Shown here: piece by piece, positions 33,834 through 41,940 of the stretch
Position numbering within the stretch: position 1 is the stretch's first letter
Layout: the number at the start of each line of letters is the position of its first letter
Assembly (NCBI RefSeq): GCF_053078305.1
Contig: NZ_CP166879.1
Reading direction: 5' to 3' (one strand)
Length of the DNA stretch: 64,000 nucleotides
Program-made: the position numbers and the translations under genes
The notes under the pieces: model-generated
The model's database searches: none
What the model was told of the DNA's origin: nothing
The model's input: only the letters and a program-made list of their open reading frames with translations

Positions 33834-35444
33834 TTATCTGTTTACATACCATTGATAAAACTCTGTCGCTTTCATTGGTTTTGCATATAAGTATCCCTGA
33901 ACTAATGTCACGTTATTATGAATAAGATATTCCGCCTGGTGAGGAGTACTGACACCTTCTGCAATCGTTATCAAATTGAGTCGATTACTCAGCTTAATAA
34001 TAATATCTAAAACTGGCGTTTCGTCTTCCGCTGTAGTGAGTGTGTCTATAAAGCTTTTATCTATTTTAAGATAATCAACAGACAACTTTTGCAGAAGGCC
34101 AAGGGAACAATATCCCGTGCCAAAATCATCAACTGCAAATTCACAGCCATGGATCCTTAATTCATTTATTTTCTGTAATGCAAGATCAGTATCTTCAACC
34201 AGATTGCGTTCGGTAATCTCAAGAACAATGTTAAATTTATCAGATATTTCATTTTTAATATGTAAAACATCAGCAACAAAATCAGGATGTGCAAGATGCT
34301 CCGCGGCAATATTTATCCCAAGGTGAAACGGCTTTTTCACTTTCCAGCTTTGTACATCCTGAATAATCAGTTCAAAGAGATGCTTAGTTAACGGTATAAT
34401 TAAATTTTCCTCTTCTGCAGCGCGGATAAAAACTACCGGAGATATATTTTTACCATCTTCGCGTTGCCAACGCATTAACGCCTCAACCCCCAGACACGCT
34501 TTGGTTGTCGTGTCACATACTGGTTGATAATGCACAGAAAATTCTCCGGATGACATTCCTTTCTTAATTTCTTCTGCCAGGGACATTTTCCGAGATATCC
34601 AGCGCTGCCATAAGAAGTACAGAATAAAAGAAAGAAGAATAGATAATGGAAGAATGTAAAATACATTACTAATGACATAGGGATATAATGAAATCATCGG
34701 CGTAGTAACTGTAAGACTAGCCTGACTGATCGCAGAATTAAAATCTTTTTTTAACATATATAACTTGTCATTATTATTTACACCACTAATAATTGCAGGC
34801 CCTTCAGTAAAGCTAAGAGAAAATGAATCATCATTCTCATCATCAAGAACATCCATCAGATCATAGATATATCGTGACTCTACAATACTAAAAGCTGTCA
34901 TATCATTCCCTATTGGCATAAGGAACACTATGGCTGTTTTACCTGGTACAAAACTTGTACCGCTAATTGATACTATGCGTGATTCTTTATTTTTATTGTG
35001 AAAGCTCGTACCGTAAACATCGTTAACATTCATTTTTTTGAAACCGCTAACTGAAGAACATATTTGGAAATTATTTTCTATAAGCCCCGTTGTTCGAACA
35101 TAGGGGGTCAATGCTCCGTTAGCAATCAATTGTTCCAGGATATCTTTGCAGGGTTTCATCACCAGAATAGAAGTAAGCTTTGTCGTATGTTTTACAATTT
35201 GCGTAACATTATCAAGCTGTTTTAACAGAATACCGGCGGTAATTGTCGTATCTCGATTCATTTGAAATACTGACATAGCAAACGACAGTAACACCCCCAG
35301 AATGCCTGGTATTATAATGAGTACAAACATTTTTTTGTTGAATACCATACATGTTTCCCCACGCATCAGGGTGATGCAACCTAAGAAATTATAGTACAAT
35401 TGCCAGTAAAAGCGGGTGATAGCAGACTGATCAATGATAAGCAT
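33834..35444 (-). CDS. Membrane-bound EAL-domain c-di-GMP phosphodiesterase with periplasmic sensor domain (up to 536 aa; start possibly at 35348)
   Basis: Two TM segments flanking a periplasmic domain; cytoplasmic EAL domain with EALMRWQ and downstream DDFGTGYCSL motifs. Gene symbol left blank because equivalence to the O157 vmpA gene is only from memory. Confidence 0.75.
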   Translation of the reverse strand: MLIIDQSAITRFYWQLYYNFLGCITLMRGETCMVFNKKMFVLIIIPGILGVLLSFAMSVFQMNRDTTITAGILLKQLDNVTQIVKHTTKLTSILVMKPCKDILEQLIANGALTPYVRTTGLIENNFQICSSVSGFKKMNVNDVYGTSFHNKNKESRIVSISGTSFVPGKTAIVFLMPIGNDMTAFSIVESRYIYDLMDVLDDENDDSFSLSFTEGPAIISGVNNNDKLYMLKKDFNSAISQASLTVTTPMISLYPYVISNVFYILPLSILLSFILYFLWQRWISRKMSLAEEIKKGMSSGEFSVHYQPVCDTTTKACLGVEALMRWQREDGKNISPVVFIRAAEEENLIIPLTKHLFELIIQDVQSWKVKKPFHLGINIAAEHLAHPDFVADVLHIKNEISDKFNIVLEITERNLVEDTDLALQKINELRIHGCEFAVDDFGTGYCSLGLLQKLSVDYLKIDKSFIDTLTTAEDETPVLDIIIKLSNRLNLITIAEGVSTPHQAEYLIHNNVTLVQGYLYAKPMKATEFYQWYVNR

Positions 35445-35541
35445 TTAAGATCATATAGTACTATGATATTTCTGAAAATTGTTACGCATGTCTGCGAATA
35501 GCTATTTAGCGCTTACCAAAATCACCCGCTAAAATGCCGCT

Positions 35542-36900
35542 TTATGGTGACTCACAAAAATTCACCACATCCCTCACAACCACCTTATTACGCCCGGTCT
35601 CTTTCGCCTCGTATAGTGCGTTATCAGCCAGTCGATAGATCTCATTCGGGTTTAACGCATTTCCCTGAGTCACAACAGCGCCAATACTAATCGTCACTTT
35701 TTGTGGTATGGCGTATTCAGGATTATCACCAGTTAAACGCTCAACATTTTCCCGAATCCTTTCCGCTAAAGCTTTCGCACGTTCAGTATCGATGTCCGTC
35801 AGCAAGACGCCAAACTCTTCGCCGCCGACGCGCGCAAAAAGGTCATCTGGCCGTATGCTTTTCCCAATGATATTCACCACTGTTTTTATCACCTGATCGC
35901 CAATCGGATGCCCCCAGGTGTCGTTGACTTTTTTGAAGTGGTCGATATCCATAAGCATGACGCAATAAGGCGTTTTTTTGGCCGATGCTGATTGAACCGT
36001 CAGTTCATTAAAAAAATAATTTCTGTTAAATATATTGGTTAAGGGATCGCGATGTGCAATGTCCTTTGTTACTCGTAGCGCACTGAATATATGGCACATA
36101 AATATTACCATAACGGTTAACTTACTGACTACTTCAATAGTGCGACTAATATACCAAATGGACACGCTATACCTGCTCATAAATAAAAGAGAGACATTGT
36201 ACAGTACGGCACAAAAAGCAATCACCGTCACTCCATTCCAGATATCATAGCGTAAACCATTAAAGTATAGATTAACCGAAAGCAAGGTTAACCACATGAA
36301 AATCATTATGGTAACATATGAAGCTTTCCAAACCACTTGACCATTTTCATTGGTTAACTCGGCAATGTGTAAATCGTAGCTCTCATAATGGCTAGAAAGT
36401 ATGTGAGCAACTATCGGCCCCCCAAGAACAAAAAACAAACTTATGCACAAAGTCATTTTTTTGGAAAATAAATTGCGCTGTTTTGTGTTTTCACTAACTT
36501 TATTCACCAATGCCAGAAATATTAATATGCACAAACTCATCTGACGAAACAAATAATAAATTGCAATGTCATTTTGAACAACACTGCTTGTCAAACGCCC
36601 CTCAATCATTTGCTGAATGATAATGACGGTTTTAACAAAGTAAATCAAACAACTCAGAAAAGCCAAACTAAGTATACAGTTTGAAAATTGCCTACGGTCA
36701 TAAATGAAATACAACTGCATAAAAATAAATGCAACAGTATCGATAAAAAATAAAGCAATCATTACCATCAGATAGGTTGATAGTGGAACAACCTCCTCAA
36801 CGCCTGGCTGATTAAACCAACTATTCACCAAAACCAAAGCAAGCCCAAACAATAAGCTCACTAAGACAGTACTACTAATTCTCAAATAGTCTTTTTCCAT
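35542..36900 (-). CDS. dgcT: Membrane-anchored diguanylate cyclase DgcT/YcdT (452 aa; ORF track extends 41 codons upstream)
   Basis: Multi-TM N-terminal domain plus GGDEF domain (RVGGEEFGVLL); N-terminus MEKDYLRISSTVLV matches recalled YcdT; divergent from pgaA. Confidence 0.85.
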   Translation of the reverse strand: MEKDYLRISSTVLVSLLFGLALVLVNSWFNQPGVEEVVPLSTYLMVMIALFFIDTVAFIFMQLYFIYDRRQFSNCILSLAFLSCLIYFVKTVIIIQQMIEGRLTSSVVQNDIAIYYLFRQMSLCILIFLALVNKVSENTKQRNLFSKKMTLCISLFFVLGGPIVAHILSSHYESYDLHIAELTNENGQVVWKASYVTIMIFMWLTLLSVNLYFNGLRYDIWNGVTVIAFCAVLYNVSLLFMSRYSVSIWYISRTIEVVSKLTVMVIFMCHIFSALRVTKDIAHRDPLTNIFNRNYFFNELTVQSASAKKTPYCVMLMDIDHFKKVNDTWGHPIGDQVIKTVVNIIGKSIRPDDLFARVGGEEFGVLLTDIDTERAKALAERIRENVERLTGDNPEYAIPQKVTISIGAVVTQGNALNPNEIYRLADNALYEAKETGRNKVVVRDVVNFCESP

Positions 36901-37249
36901 AAAGCTACACCAACCTGTAGGTTGTAGATCCCTTTCTATTATTAATAGATATAAGAACTGTACAGTTGTCAATATGAAAACCCACTCACAAACAATACCG
37001 ATGATGATAGTTGCAGGCCGCAATTATTATTACCTTAGTGCTTTATACATTCTTTGCGACAAGACAGGCTTGCAAATATTTATAAATGGTTATAAGGAAA
37101 TCCTTATAAAACATTCATTCATAGATATATTAGGAATAACAATTGAATCCGTGAGTACAGTAACGCTGCATTTCATCAGGACTTTCGAAAAATCCGAAAT
37201 CATGCATCGGAATTTACTGATTTAATTATTTTACTCCTAATTTATTTTG

Positions 37250-37489
37250 AAAAAGGCATTGGGATTTATGCCGTATTCCTGAAGATCCTCATCATTGGAA
37301 TGGATTTTCGGGCGAGAAAAGGATTTTATATGGACACTCTGCTCATCATTTCTTCTTCTCATCATCAACAATTCACGTCTCTCTTCCGCGTTTAATAACG
37401 GATTATGAGGTGCAAAAAAATATCTTTCTTTTCAGTTACCTGTCATTAGATACAGAGAGAGATTTTGGCAATACATGGAGTAATACAGG
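37250..37489 (+). promoter_or_regulatory. pgaA 5' leader region with multiple GGA motifs (candidate CsrA-binding sites), one overlapping the SD/start (acaggatgt)
   Basis: GGA motifs read directly (cattggaatggatttt, aaaaggatttt, ataacggattatgagg, catggagtaatacaggATG); CsrA control of the pgaA leader is established for K-12. Confidence 0.5.
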
Positions 37490-39913
37490 ATGTATTCAAG
37501 TAGCAGAAAAAGGTGCCCGCAAACCAAATGGGCTTTGAAAATTCTTACTGCCGCATTTTTAGCAGCGAGTCCCGCGGCGAAGAGTGCCGTTAATAACGCC
37601 TATGATGCATTGATTATTGAAGCTCGCAAGGGAAATACTCAGCCAGTTTTGTTATGGTTTGCACAAAAATCAGCACTCAGTAATAACCAAATTGCTGACT
37701 GGTTACAGATTGCCTTATGGGCCGGGCAAGATAAACAGGTTATTACCGTTTACAACCGCTACCGTTATCAGCAATTACCAGCGCGTGGTTATGCAGCTGT
37801 CGCAGTCGCTTATCGTAACCTGCAACAATGGCAAAACTCGCTTACACTGTGGCAAAAGGCGCTCTCTCTGGAGCCGCAAAATAAGGATTATCAACGGGGA
37901 CAAATTTTAACCCTGGCAGATGCGGGTCACTATGATACTGCGCTGGTTAAACTTAAGCAGCTTAACTCTGGAGCACCGGACAAAGCCAATTTACTCGCAG
38001 AAGCCTATATCTATAAACTGGCAGGGCGTCATCAGGATGAATTACGGGCGATGACAGAGTCATTACCTGAAAATGCATCTACGCAACAATATCCCACAGA
38101 ATACGTGCAGGCATTACGTAATAATCAACTTGCTGCCGCGATTGACGATGCCAATTTAACGCCAGATATTCGCGCTGATATTCATGCCGAACTGGTCAGA
38201 CTGTCGTTTATGCCTACGCGCAGTGAAAGTGAACGTTATGCCATTGCCGATCGCGCCCTCGCCCAATACGCTGCATTAGAAATTCTGTGGCATGATAACC
38301 CTGACCGCACTGCCCAGTACCAGCGTATTCAGATCGATCATCTTGGCGCGTTATTAACTCGCGATCGTTATAAAGACGTTATTTCTCACTATCAGCGTTT
38401 AAAAAAGACGGGGCAAATTATTCCGCCCTGGGCGCAATATTGGGTTGCGTCGGCTTATCTCAAAGAACATCAGCCAAAAAAAGCACAGTCAATAATGACA
38501 GAGCTCTTTTATCACAAGGAGACCATTGCCCCGGATTTATCCGATGAAGAACTTGCGGATCTCTTTTACAGCCACCTGGAGAGTGAAAATTATCCCGGCG
38601 CGCTAACTGTCACCCAACATACCATTAATACTTCGCCGCCTTTCCTTCGGTTAATGGGCACGCCTACGAGCATCCCGAATGATACCTGGTTACAGGGGCA
38701 TTCGTTTCTCTCAACCGTAGCAAAATATAGTAATGATCTTCCTCAGGCTGAAATGACAGCCAGAGAGCTTGCTTATAACGCACCAGGAAATCAGGGACTG
38801 CGCATTGATTACGCGAGTGTGTTACAAGCCCGCGGTTGGCCTCGTGCAGCAGAAAATGAATTAAAAAAAGCAGAAGTGATCGAGCCACGTAATATTAATC
38901 TGGAGGTTGAACAAGCCTGGACAGCATTAACGTTACAAGAATGGCAGCAGGCAGCTGTCTTTACGCACGATGTTGTCGAACGTGAACCGCAATATCCTGG
39001 CGTTGTACGTTTAAAACGTGCGGTTGATGTACATAATCTTGCAGAGCTTCGTATCGCTGGCTCAACAGGAATTGATGCCGAAGGCCCGGATAGTGGTAAA
39101 CATGATGTCGACTTAACCACCATCGTTTATTCACCACCGCTAAATGATAACTGGCGCGGTTTTGCTGGATTCGGTTATGCCGATGGACAATTTAGCGAAG
39201 GAAAAGGGATTGTTCGCGACTGGCTTGCGGGTGTTGAGTGGCGGTCACGTAATATCTGGCTCGAGGCGGAGTACGCTGAACGCTTTTTCAATCATGAGCA
39301 TAAACCCGGCGCGCGCCTTTCTGGCTGGTATGATTTTAATGATAATTGGCGTATTGGTTCGCAACTGGAACGCCTCTCTCACCGCGTTCCATTACGGGCA
39401 ATGAAAAATGGTGTTACAGGCAACAGTGCTCAGGCTTATGTTCGCTGGTATCAAAATGAGCGGCGTAAGTACGGTGTCTCCTGGGCTTTCACTGATTTTT
39501 CCGACAGTAACCAGCGTCATGAAGTCTCAATTGAGGGTCAGGAACGCATCTGGTCTTCACCATATTTGATTGTCGATTTCCTACCCAGTCTGTATTACGA
39601 ACAAAATACAGAACACGATACCCCATACTACAACCCTATAAAAACGTTCGATATTGTTCCGGCATTTGAGGCAAGTCATTTGTTATGGCGAAGCTATGAA
39701 AATAGCTGGGAGCAAATCTTCAGCGCAGGTGTTGGTGCCTCCTGGCAAAAACATTATGGCACGGATGTCGTCACCCAACTCGGCTACGGGCAACGCATTA
39801 GCTGGAATGACGTGATTGATGCTGGCGCAACGCTACGCTGGGAAAAACGACCTTATGACGGTGACAGAGAACACAACTTATACGTTGAATTCGATATGAC
39901 ATTCAGATTTTAA
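37490..39913 (+). CDS. pgaA: PGA export porin PgaA (807 aa)
   Basis: Matches recalled PgaA (MYSSSRKRCP..., TPR-rich N-terminal domain, beta-barrel C-terminus). Confidence 0.9.
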   Translation: MYSSSRKRCPQTKWALKILTAAFLAASPAAKSAVNNAYDALIIEARKGNTQPVLLWFAQKSALSNNQIADWLQIALWAGQDKQVITVYNRYRYQQLPARGYAAVAVAYRNLQQWQNSLTLWQKALSLEPQNKDYQRGQILTLADAGHYDTALVKLKQLNSGAPDKANLLAEAYIYKLAGRHQDELRAMTESLPENASTQQYPTEYVQALRNNQLAAAIDDANLTPDIRADIHAELVRLSFMPTRSESERYAIADRALAQYAALEILWHDNPDRTAQYQRIQIDHLGALLTRDRYKDVISHYQRLKKTGQIIPPWAQYWVASAYLKEHQPKKAQSIMTELFYHKETIAPDLSDEELADLFYSHLESENYPGALTVTQHTINTSPPFLRLMGTPTSIPNDTWLQGHSFLSTVAKYSNDLPQAEMTARELAYNAPGNQGLRIDYASVLQARGWPRAAENELKKAEVIEPRNINLEVEQAWTALTLQEWQQAAVFTHDVVEREPQYPGVVRLKRAVDVHNLAELRIAGSTGIDAEGPDSGKHDVDLTTIVYSPPLNDNWRGFAGFGYADGQFSEGKGIVRDWLAGVEWRSRNIWLEAEYAERFFNHEHKPGARLSGWYDFNDNWRIGSQLERLSHRVPLRAMKNGVTGNSAQAYVRWYQNERRKYGVSWAFTDFSDSNQRHEVSIEGQERIWSSPYLIVDFLPSLYYEQNTEHDTPYYNPIKTFDIVPAFEASHLLWRSYENSWEQIFSAGVGASWQKHYGTDVVTQLGYGQRISWNDVIDAGATLRWEKRPYDGDREHNLYVEFDMTFRF

Positions 39914-39921
39914 GGATAAAT

Positions 39922-41940
39922 ATGTTACGTAATGGAAATAAATATCTCCTGATGCTGGTGAGTATAATTATGCTCACTGCGTGCATTAGCCAGTCAAAAA
40001 CATCATTTATACCGCCACAGGATCGCGAGTCTTTACTCGCCGAGCAACCGTGGCCGCATAATGGTTTTGTGGCGATTTCATGGCATAACGTTGAAGACGA
40101 AGCTGCCGACCAGCGTTTTATGTCAGTGCGGACATCAGCACTGCGTGAACAATTTGCCTGGCTGCGCGAGAACGGTTATCAACCGGTCAGTATTGCTCAA
40201 ATTCGTGAAGCACATCGAGGAGGAAAACCGCTACCGGAAAAAGCAGTAGTGCTGACTTTTGATGATGGCTACCAGAGTTTTTATACCCGCGTCTTCCCAA
40301 TTCTTCAGGCCTTCCAGTGGCCTGCTGTATGGGCCCCCGTCGGCAGTTGGGTCGATACGCCAGCGGATAAACAAGTAAAATTTGGCGATGAGATGGTCGA
40401 TCGAGAATATTTTGCCACGTGGCAACAAGTGCGAGAAGTTGCGCGTTCCCCGCTCGTTGAGGTCTCTTCTCATACATGGAATTCTCACTACGGTATTCAG
40501 GCTAATGCCACCGGCAGCTTATTGCCTGTATATGTAAATCGTGCATATTTTACTGACCACGCACGGTATGAAACCGCAGCAGAATACCGGGAAAGAATTC
40601 GTCTGGATGCTGTAAAAATGACGGAATACCTGCGTACAAAGGCTAAGGTAAATCCACACGTTTTTGTTTGGCCTTATGGCGAAGCGAATGGCATAGCGAT
40701 AGAGGAATTAAAAAAACTCGGTTATGACATGTTCTTCACCCTTGAATCAGGTTTGGCAAATGCGTCGCAATTGGATTCCATTCCGCGAGTATTAATCGCC
40801 AATAATCCCTCATTAAAAGAGTTTGCCCAGAAAATTATTACCGTACAGGAAAAATCACCACAACGGATAATGCATATCGATCTTGATTACGTTTATGACG
40901 AAAACCGCCAGCAAATGGATCGCAATATTGATGTGCTAATTCAGCGGGTGAAAGATATGCAAATATCAACCGTGTATTTGCAGGCATTTGCTGATCCCGA
41001 TGGTGATGGGCTGGTCAAAGAGGTCTGGTTTCCAAATCGTTTGCTACCAATGAAAGCAGATATTTTTAGTCGGGTTGCCTGGCAATTACGTACCCGCTCA
41101 GGTGTAAACATCTATGCGTGGATGCCGGTATTAAGCTGGGATTTAGATCCCACATTAACGCGAGTAAAATACTTACCAACAGGAGAGAAAAAAGCACAAA
41201 TTCATCCTGAACAATATCGCCGTCTCTCTCCTTTTGATGACAGGGTCAGAGCACAAGTTGGCATGTTATATGAAGATCTTGCCGGACATGCTGCTTTTGA
41301 TGGCCTATTGTTCCACGATGATGCTTTGCTTTCAGATTATGAAGATGCCAGTGCACCGGCTATCGCGGCTTATCAGCAAGCAGGCTTTAGCGGGAGTCTG
41401 AGCGAAATTCGACAAAACCCGGAGCAATTTAAACAGTGGACCCGCTTTAAAAGTCGTGCGTTAACTGACTTCACTTTAGAACTTAGTGCGCGCGTAAAAG
41501 CCATTCGTGGTCCACATGTTAAAACTGCACGAAATATTTTTGCACTTCCGGTAACACAACCTGAAAGTGAAGCCTGGTTTGCACAGAATTATGCTGATTT
41601 CCTAAAAAGCTATGACTGGACTGCTATTATGGCTATGCCTTATATGGAAGGTGTCGCAGAAAAATCGGCTGATCAATGGTTAATACAACTGACCAATCAG
41701 ATTAAAAGCATCCCTCAGGCTAAAGACAAATCTATTTTAGAATTACAGGCACAAAACTGGCAGAAAAATGGTCAGCATCAGGCTATTTCTTCGCAACAAC
41801 TCGCTCACTGGATGAGCCTATTACAACTGAATGGAGTGAAAAACTATGGTTATTATCCCGACAATTTTCTGCATAACCAACCTGAAATAGACGTTATTCG
41901 TCCTGAGTTTTCAACAGCCTGGTATCCGAAAAATGATTAA
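39922..41940 (+). CDS. pgaB: Poly-beta-1,6-N-acetylglucosamine N-deacetylase PgaB (672 aa)
   Basis: Lipoprotein signal (LTAC), polysaccharide deacetylase motifs (TFDDGY), size and synteny. Confidence 0.9.

Follow-up and report, generated by a model that had tools for sequence, protein, structure and literature searches.

The 5' region of pgaA in the window (the whole 64-kb stretch of DNA that was analyzed, with positions counted from its first letter) raises the question of whether the interval at 37250-37495 is the CsrA-repressed leader of the pgaABCD operon and whether PGA production would remain under Csr control in a strain with a variable island nearby. The pgaA CDS in the ORF list (37490..39913, + strand) encodes an 807-aa PGA export porin and is the first gene of pgaABCD; its name comes from the annotation of a 99%-identical record, and the product shares 98.3% amino acid identity with K-12 PgaA. 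The diguanylate cyclase gene dgcT (ycdT; 35542..36900, - strand), also named from the annotation of a 99%-identical record, is divergent, and pgaB, pgaC, and pgaD follow pgaA according to the ORF list and the annotated record. This divergent ycdT-pgaABCD layout has been described (PMC4287979). The dgcT-pgaA intergenic region is 589 bp long and houses the pgaA promoter and the 5' untranslated leader (37254..37489, + strand; 236 nt), identified by homology to the 234-nt K-12 leader (PMC4052769, PMC3571907), with its start placed from the homologous K-12 transcription start (ATG minus 234). The first-pass annotation had read this interval as the pgaA leader, and that reading holds: pgaA starts at 37490, the leader aligns to that of K-12 without rearrangement, and the limits 37250-37495 suit a leader at 37254-37489 with a start-codon CsrA site that extends to about 37493. 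The feature is the already known and well-studied pgaABCD 5' UTR, and its presence here is ordinary and expected. Its identity as a CsrA- and Rho-regulated leader, together with the account of a two-layer CsrA off-switch carried over from K-12, is almost certainly correct for the window, judging from its sequence and predicted structure. A search of 35000-40000 against Rfam with a cutoff of E <= 1 returned no relevant match, only two chance snoRNA matches inside dgcT; Rfam apparently has no model for the pgaA leader, so this result says nothing against the identification. The record NZ_CP062811.1 is collinear with the window, with 99.0% identity over 37.6 kb and 100% identity only around the leader, and a proposal that it is the same sequence as the window was dropped because of that 99.0% value.

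Several GGA motifs, one of them across the pgaA start codon, had been proposed for this interval, and eight are present on the + strand, at 37262, 37297, 37302, 37321, 37332, 37400, 37477, and 37488, corresponding to leader positions +9, +44, +49, +68, +79, +147, +224, and +235. The last lies in acaGGAtg, where its A doubles as the A of the pgaA ATG (37490), and the GGA at 37477 lies in caUGGAGua, the Shine-Dalgarno sequence. Five of the eight carry an ANGGA core, and the spacing is 11 nt both between the Shine-Dalgarno and AUG sites and between +68 and +79. The leader thus follows the generic pattern of CsrA/RsmA targets, with at least two GGA sites 10 to 63 nt apart, spacings within reach of a CsrA dimer (PMC4052769), and one site over the Shine-Dalgarno sequence. 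Across all 246-nt windows of the 64 kb on both strands, the mean is 2.77 GGAs, and 0.5% reach eight. Mononucleotide shuffles of the interval gave a P value of 0.0012 for eight GGAs, and dinucleotide-preserving shuffles gave a mean of 5.47 and a P value of 0.089 for at least eight. The clustering is real, yet by itself it is only modestly above the local dinucleotide expectation; GGA density alone is therefore weak evidence, and the identification is carried by homology. The shuffle means, the approximately 25 other places in the window that likewise hold eight GGAs per 246 nt, and the GGAs at +9, +44, and +49, for which no role was found in the published literature, are what one would cite for regarding the cluster as a functionless by-product of an A/T- and purine-rich intergenic composition. 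That explanation is highly improbable, since CsrA binding to the orthologous K-12 leader has been footprinted and site mutations relieve repression (PMC4052769, PMC7652899), and since the Shine-Dalgarno and AUG sites are 100% conserved in a divergent pga allele with only 61% identity at third codon positions. Of the eight GGAs, only about five correspond to published or inferred CsrA sites.

The closest known system is the K-12 pgaABCD 5' UTR (Wang et al. 2005; Figueroa-Bossi et al. 2014), with which the window shares the locus, the neighbors, and approximately 99% identity (98.7% between the leader and K-12-type records). The alignment with MG1655 is collinear with two differences only, a 2-nt indel that gives an A-run of seven instead of five (37414..37420, + strand) and a substitution at leader position +191 (37444, + strand), where the window has C against an A in K-12 and in six more of the sampled strains. 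The A-run ranges from 5 to 9 across the sampled strains and lies mostly inside a predicted loop; the MFE structure shows the C at 37444 as an unpaired bulge. Both differences miss every GGA, the AGAGA repeat, the Shine-Dalgarno sequence, the start codon, the hairpin at +61..+107, and the C-rich Rho-loading region. Upstream, the promoter spacer carries C in place of the K-12 A at 37234 (-20), and this C and the C at 37444 are unique to the window allele among the eight alleles sampled. The first-pass annotation had assumed conservation of the experimentally defined CsrA sites, for which sequence divergence and structure prediction were the relevant checks. The Shine-Dalgarno site, the AUG site, and the two sites at +61-81 are the same as in K-12, with CAUGGAGUA and ACAGGAUG letter-identical and the sites as published (PMC4052769, PMC7652899), and the window leader has the same MFE fold as the K-12 leader.

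Six CsrA sites are known in the K-12 leader, of which those at the Shine-Dalgarno sequence and at the AUG are needed to repress translation, and the published site at the latter covers the initiating AUG (PMC4052769, PMC7652899). In the window, the site over the start codon is AAUACAGGAUGU (37482..37493, + strand; GGA at 37488-37490), and that over the Shine-Dalgarno sequence is AUACAUGGAGUA (37471..37482, + strand; GGA at 37477-37479); both are identical to K-12. AAUACAGGAUGU matches the SELEX consensus RUACARGGAUGU at 8 of 12 positions in register and at 11 of 12 after a 1-nt shift. The ACGGA at +145..+149 (37398..37402, + strand), also identical to K-12, is probably the third published site. 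ACGGA is listed among the primary CsrA site types, and AGAGA is listed as a secondary type, for which Wang 2005 is one of the papers cited (PMC4066749, table 2). One published pgaA site is apparently AGAGA rather than GGA, and the AGAGAGAGA repeat at +201..+209 (37454..37462, + strand), again the same as in K-12, is probably this non-GGA fourth site. The spacing between sites 3 and 4 is 54 nt in K-12 and 56 nt in the window allele.

The published pgaA mechanism exceeds occlusion of the Shine-Dalgarno sequence in that CsrA also remodels a hairpin and provokes Rho-dependent termination. The L arm of this anti-terminator hairpin (+61..+81; 37314..37334, + strand) is identical to K-12, pairs with 37335-37360 in the MFE structure, and bears the two 5'-proximal CsrA sites, AAGGA at 37319-37323 and AUGGA at 37330-37334. 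The R arm (+82..+107; 37335..37360, + strand), likewise identical to K-12, forms the rut region's 5' half, and this whole region lies in a C>G-rich bubble (+50..+130; 37303..37383, + strand; interval according to PMC4052769) with 20 C and 12 G in 81 nt. In K-12, the L arm and its two CsrA sites at +61-81 control Rho termination, and deletion of the R arm abolishes Rho dependence (PMC4052769). MFE predictions for the window and K-12 leaders alike give a discontinuous hairpin at exactly +61..+107, as in Figueroa-Bossi et al. (PMC4052769). Folding stability relative to shuffled sequence is unremarkable (z = 0.36 for the whole leader and z = -0.49 for the hairpin), which fits the published description of an imperfect hairpin and means that these scores add no independent structural support. 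The mechanism, each step of which is experimental in K-12, would be carried over to the window through near-identical sequence and predicted structure. In the nascent RNA, the purine-rich L arm would pair with the pyrimidine-rich R arm, masking half of the rut region and allowing read-through, and CsrA bound to both L-arm GGA sites would open the hairpin so that Rho loads and transcription halts within the leader. On transcripts that escape, CsrA dimers over the Shine-Dalgarno sequence (37477) and the start codon (37488) would block ribosomes and destabilize the mRNA, and sequestration of CsrA by CsrB, CsrC, or McaS would reverse both layers. McaS is known to act on pgaA through CsrA (PMC3571907).

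The same region contains a 21-codon uORF (37330-37395; MDTLLIISSSHHQQFTSLFRV), whose translation might set the access of Rho to the rut region in the manner of a leader-peptide attenuator. The uORF begins at the second CsrA site, spans the rut region, and stays open with length and stop codon unchanged in the 78%-identical allele. It has no Shine-Dalgarno sequence except the CsrA site itself, mutants of its start codon have no phenotype, as published, and the two alleles differ in it by 6 nonsynonymous and 3 synonymous changes, which gives no sign of selection on the peptide. Such attenuation is scarcely credible here and was ruled out on the published mutagenesis and the uORF substitution pattern.

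At its 5' terminus, the leader is predicted to fold into a stem-loop, GGCAU-UGGGAUUU-AUGCC, whose loop holds a GGA (37255..37272, + strand; -6.7 kcal/mol, z = -2.3) and which is absent from the published set of CsrA sites. On the - strand, the reverse complement of 37255..37272 scored as terminator-like. All three GGAs at +9, +44, and +49 are kept in the divergent allele despite its 61% identity at third codon positions. It is nevertheless rather improbable that the one at +9 and the tandem pair at +44/+49 are additional functional CsrA contacts, and the same holds for the separate idea that the 5-to-9 A-run, which lies in the termination zone, tunes read-through between strains. If the first were true, +9 and +44/+49 may control 5'-end-dependent decay or recruit CsrA before the L arm emerges.

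The leader was found in 4,250 of 5,426 complete E. coli genomes, with at least 95% identity in 4,164, and the allele in the window is the common one of the K-12 type rather than the divergent one. The divergent pga allele (NT1W25 and SCPM-O-B-8794) has the same gene order, with a leader that is 78% identical and a pgaA CDS that is 79.5% identical. The last 33 nt of the leader, which hold the Shine-Dalgarno and AUG sites, are fully conserved in it, the rut core CATTTCTTCTTCTCA is invariant, and the AAGGA at +68 is kept. The retention of these elements despite deep divergence points to purifying selection on them. Two GGAs, those at +79 and at +147 (now GGG), have been lost in this allele, so not every site is indispensable. 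An equivalent 5' hairpin with a loop GGA and an analogous purine/pyrimidine hairpin are predicted for the divergent leader, and in the strains that carry it, dgcT directly adjoins tRNA-Ser/RtT with no variable segment. In a scan for the exact 19-mer CATGGAGTAATACAGGATG with one genome per species, one Escherichia genome matched, with the divergent allele; the other matches were a stretch of 382 bp from E. coli contaminating a Tannerella assembly, and three in unrelated MAGs that are attributable to chance.

That PGA production stays under Csr control is inferred from these intact cis-elements, and the strength of that control would also depend on the CsrA level and other trans factors. The first-pass annotation had extended the statement to the presence of the neighboring island, and the leader is indeed intact: the intergenic region is unaffected by the variable segment of approximately 33 kb, whose end is about 1.8 kb away. 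Since the segment ends beyond dgcT, there is little reason to expect an effect on the leader in cis. On the far side of dgcT, the window has vmpA/pdeT and this segment, whereas K-12 has an IS3-truncated remnant. Upstream of 37254, a consensus promoter scan of the + strand found no sigma-70 match. This is expected of an activator-dependent promoter such as the NhaR-activated pgaA promoter and does not count against it. csrA lies outside the window and is present in 5,425 of the 5,426 complete E. coli genomes, with at least 99% identity in 5,423.

With all cis-elements intact, Csr control of PGA could still differ quantitatively from that in K-12 through the C at -20, the A7 run, the C at +191, or the levels of CsrA, CsrB, or CsrC. 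E. coli C has the same kinds of determinants, and its CsrA repression of pga is far weaker, as a result of an IS3 insertion in the csrA promoter (PMC8151843). The polymorphic A-run and the two allele-specific C residues also speak for such a difference, and only 110 of the 4,250 leader records are at least 99% identical to the window leader. It is unlikely all the same, given that the allele-specific changes spare all GGAs, both hairpin arms, and the rut core and leave the predicted structure the same, that the 56-nt spacing of sites 3 and 4 is still inside the 10- to 63-nt range of a CsrA dimer (PMC4052769), and that the csrA CDS is near-universal and highly conserved.

The strain carries the standard PGA cis-regulatory apparatus, made up of the sites for translational repression by CsrA and the Rho attenuator that CsrA triggers; this has little import beyond correct annotation, and homology suffices to annotate the leader. 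As sources of differences between strains in PGA output, the levels of CsrA, CsrB, and CsrC, NhaR, c-di-GMP enzymes (for instance, the neighboring vmpA/pdeT), and promoter IS insertions are more promising than the leader sequence. Among other CsrA-controlled leaders, those of glgC, cstA, nhaR, and ydeH/dgcZ resemble that of pgaA in having GGA-centered sites, one of which lies over the Shine-Dalgarno sequence, and in all five a CsrA dimer bridges pairs of sites and ribosome binding is blocked (PMC4066749, PMC7652899). The pgaA leader differs from the others in having the most sites, six, and an anti-terminator hairpin that CsrA opens for Rho loading, and in the reviewed text this Rho-dependent layer is described for pgaA only (PMC7652899).

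The interval 37250-37495 is intergenic and lies between the divergent genes dgcT (ycdT; 35542-36900, minus strand) and pgaA (plus strand, start 37490, 807 amino acids), the latter followed by pgaB, pgaC, and pgaD. It is the already known leader of pgaABCD, in its common K-12-type form, and the PgaA protein is 98.3% identical to that of K-12. Of 5426 complete E. coli genomes, 4251 have a pgaA upstream region that matches a 501-nt query around the site, and 4250 match the leader when it is searched by itself, 4164 of them at an identity of at least 95%. The K-12 leader is 234 nt long (PMC4052769; PMC3571907), which would place the homologous transcription start at 37254 (+1) and give a leader of 236 nt here. 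The dgcT-pgaA intergenic region measures 589 bp, versus 586 bp in K-12, and thus contains no IS1-type insertion such as the one reported to disrupt the pgaA promoter of EAEC 55989 (PMC4287979). Rfam holds no model for the pgaA leader. Approximately 1175 of the 5426 genomes have no match to the leader; in some, such as H30, the query matches over no more than its first ~100 nt, which suggests a pga deletion. Seven leader matches in the E. coli collection are on plasmids. In addition, a 382-bp contig labelled Tannerella forsythia ATCC 43037 (NZ_JUET01000049.1) carries a K-12-type E. coli pgaA leader, which is almost certainly E. coli contamination of that assembly.

The first-pass annotation had interpreted this region as a CsrA-repressed leader on the basis of multiple GGA motifs, including one at the start codon, and both the motifs and their coordinates were correct. 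Eight GGA triplets start on the plus strand at 37262, 37297, 37302, 37321, 37332, 37400, 37477, and 37488; that at 37477 (caUGGAGua) is the Shine-Dalgarno (SD) sequence, and the last (acaGGAtg) shares its A with the ATG of pgaA. Over both strands of the 64-kb window, 246-nt windows have a mean of 2.77 GGAs, and just 0.5% reach eight. Shuffles of the interval gave a P value of 0.0012 when only mononucleotide composition was kept and of 0.089 (mean, 5.47) when dinucleotides were preserved. Motif density by itself would not carry the claim, and the identification is carried by homology. Plus-strand GGAs are also dense in the 180 bp that precede the transcription start (37078-37253), where windows from 37078 and 37157 likewise reach eight; this density is probably compositional, because the segment is promoter and NhaR-binding DNA that is not transcribed with pgaA.

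Alignment with the leader of K-12 MG1655 revealed two differences only, an A-run of seven rather than five residues (37414-37420; K-12 +161-165) and an A-to-C change at 37444 (K-12 +189). None of the eight GGAs, nor the AGAGAGAGA repeat (37454-37462), the SD sequence, or the AUG, differs from K-12. In the predicted structure, the A-run falls largely in a loop, with its first three residues weakly paired, and 37444 is a single-base bulge. The length of the A-run, which sits in the zone of Rho-dependent termination, varies from five in K-12, O157, ST131, and 2012C-4502 to seven here, eight in XJ6.1, and nine in WCHEC040047. Among eight aligned sequences, two changes are unique to the allele of the window, A to C at 37234 (-20, in the pgaA promoter spacer) and A to C at 37444 (+191).

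Six CsrA sites were described in the K-12 leader by Wang et al. in 2005, as related in PMC4052769 and PMC7652899. According to these accounts, the distal pair of sites overlaps the SD sequence and the AUG and is needed for translational repression, and its mutation relieves ~60% of the repression. K-12 positions +61 to +107 form a discontinuous hairpin whose L arm (+61-81) bears the two 5'-proximal CsrA sites and whose R arm (+82-107) makes up the 5' half of the C-rich Rho utilization (rut) site (Figueroa-Bossi et al. 2014, PMC4052769). In the same study, deletion of L locked expression off, deletion of R raised it ~10-fold with loss of Rho dependence, and McaS was found to act by titrating CsrA and not by pairing with the leader. 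In K-12, CsrA on the L arm opens the hairpin so that Rho loads and terminates transcription inside the leader, and CsrA over the SD sequence and AUG represses translation; for the allele of the window, we infer CsrA binding, Rho dependence, and the transcription start from K-12, and the same steps would apply. Structure prediction is consistent with this, as the minimum free energy folds of the two leaders are identical, each with a hairpin spanning exactly +61 to +107. The region from +50 to +130 contains 20 C versus 12 G.

Because the published 5'-proximal pair lies within +61-81, it corresponds to the GGAs at +68 and +79. For the other two published sites, which we take to be the third and fourth, the likeliest candidates are the ACGGA motif at +145 and, near +201, the AGAGA repeat. 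AGAGA is listed as a secondary CsrA site in table 2 of PMC4066749, which cites Wang 2005. The spacing between these two presumed sites increases from 54 nt in K-12 to 56 nt here, which is well within the 10- to 63-nt span bridgeable by a CsrA dimer (PMC4052769). By this partly inferred assignment, about five of the eight GGAs match defined sites, a further defined site lacks a GGA, and the other three GGAs, at +9, +44, and +49, are outside the six published sites. The GGA at +9 occupies the 8-nt loop of a 5'-terminal stem-loop (37255-37272; -6.7 kcal/mol, z = -2.3), and good CsrA sites classically present their GGA in a hairpin loop; a literature search for a published role of this GGA found none.

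A deeply divergent pgaABCD allele is present in a small group of genomes labelled E. coli, such as NT1W25 (L003, 5999-6235), and also in SCPM-O-B-8794, the sole Escherichia genome matched in the species-representative scan. Its identity is 79.5% in the pgaA coding sequence (61% at third codon positions) and 78% in the leader, but identity is 100% from 33 nt before the start codon, a stretch that includes both translational CsrA sites, through the first 20 nt of the coding sequence. The rut core CATTTCTTCTTCTCA shows no difference either, and the allele retains the AAGGA at +68 and, in shape, the 5' hairpin with its loop GGA. It lacks the GGAs at +79 and +147, and a hairpin of comparable purine/pyrimidine type is predicted for it. 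A 21-codon upstream ORF (37330-37395; MDTLLIISSSHHQQFTSLFRV) runs across the rut region and is still open in this allele. The ORF has six nonsynonymous versus three synonymous changes, with no sign of selection on the peptide, and mutation of its AUG in K-12 had no effect (PMC4052769).

Taken with these qualifications, the comparison supports the interpretation of 37250-37495 as a CsrA-repressed leader. The further claim that PGA production remains under Csr control stands as far as the cis-elements are concerned, which are intact relative to K-12 and indicate the capacity for such control, not its strength. In E. coli C, pga is repressed far less than in K-12 because an IS3 element in the csrA promoter lowers CsrA (PMC8151843). 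csrA lies outside the 64-kb window and is present in 5425 of 5426 E. coli genomes.

Control had also been thought to persist despite a neighbouring island. This variable segment of ~33 kb (~2183-35444) lies between tRNA-Ser (~2183-2270) and dgcT. Seen from pgaA, it ends beyond dgcT, at ~1.8 kb from the promoter, which made cis-interference with the leader unlikely from the outset. Its gene content was taken from the annotation of NZ_CP062811.1, the record of a Quebec pig isolate to which the window aligns collinearly at 99.0% identity: ycdU, an intact ymdE-like ACP malonyltransferase, an FAS/PKS-like cluster (two ketosynthases, ACP, a FabZ-like protein, SDR, and acpS), an ABC transporter with a LolA-like protein, an FhaC/filamentous-haemagglutinin two-partner secretion pair, and a chaperone-usher fimbrial operon. 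Directly downstream of dgcT is a 536-amino-acid EAL gene with a CSS motif (Pfam; 33834-35444, minus strand). In EHEC, the c-di-GMP phosphodiesterase gene vmpA/pdeT, which is missing from K-12, is just downstream of ycdT (PMC4287979), and by position and domain type the 33834-35444 gene corresponds to it. The PGA operon, which is activated by c-di-GMP, is thus flanked by genes for both a cyclase and a phosphodiesterase. Of the ~33-kb segment, K-12 retains no more than an IS3-truncated remnant, with ycdU, a shortened ymdE, and IS3, and NT1W25 passes from tRNA-Ser/RtT to dgcT with nothing in between.
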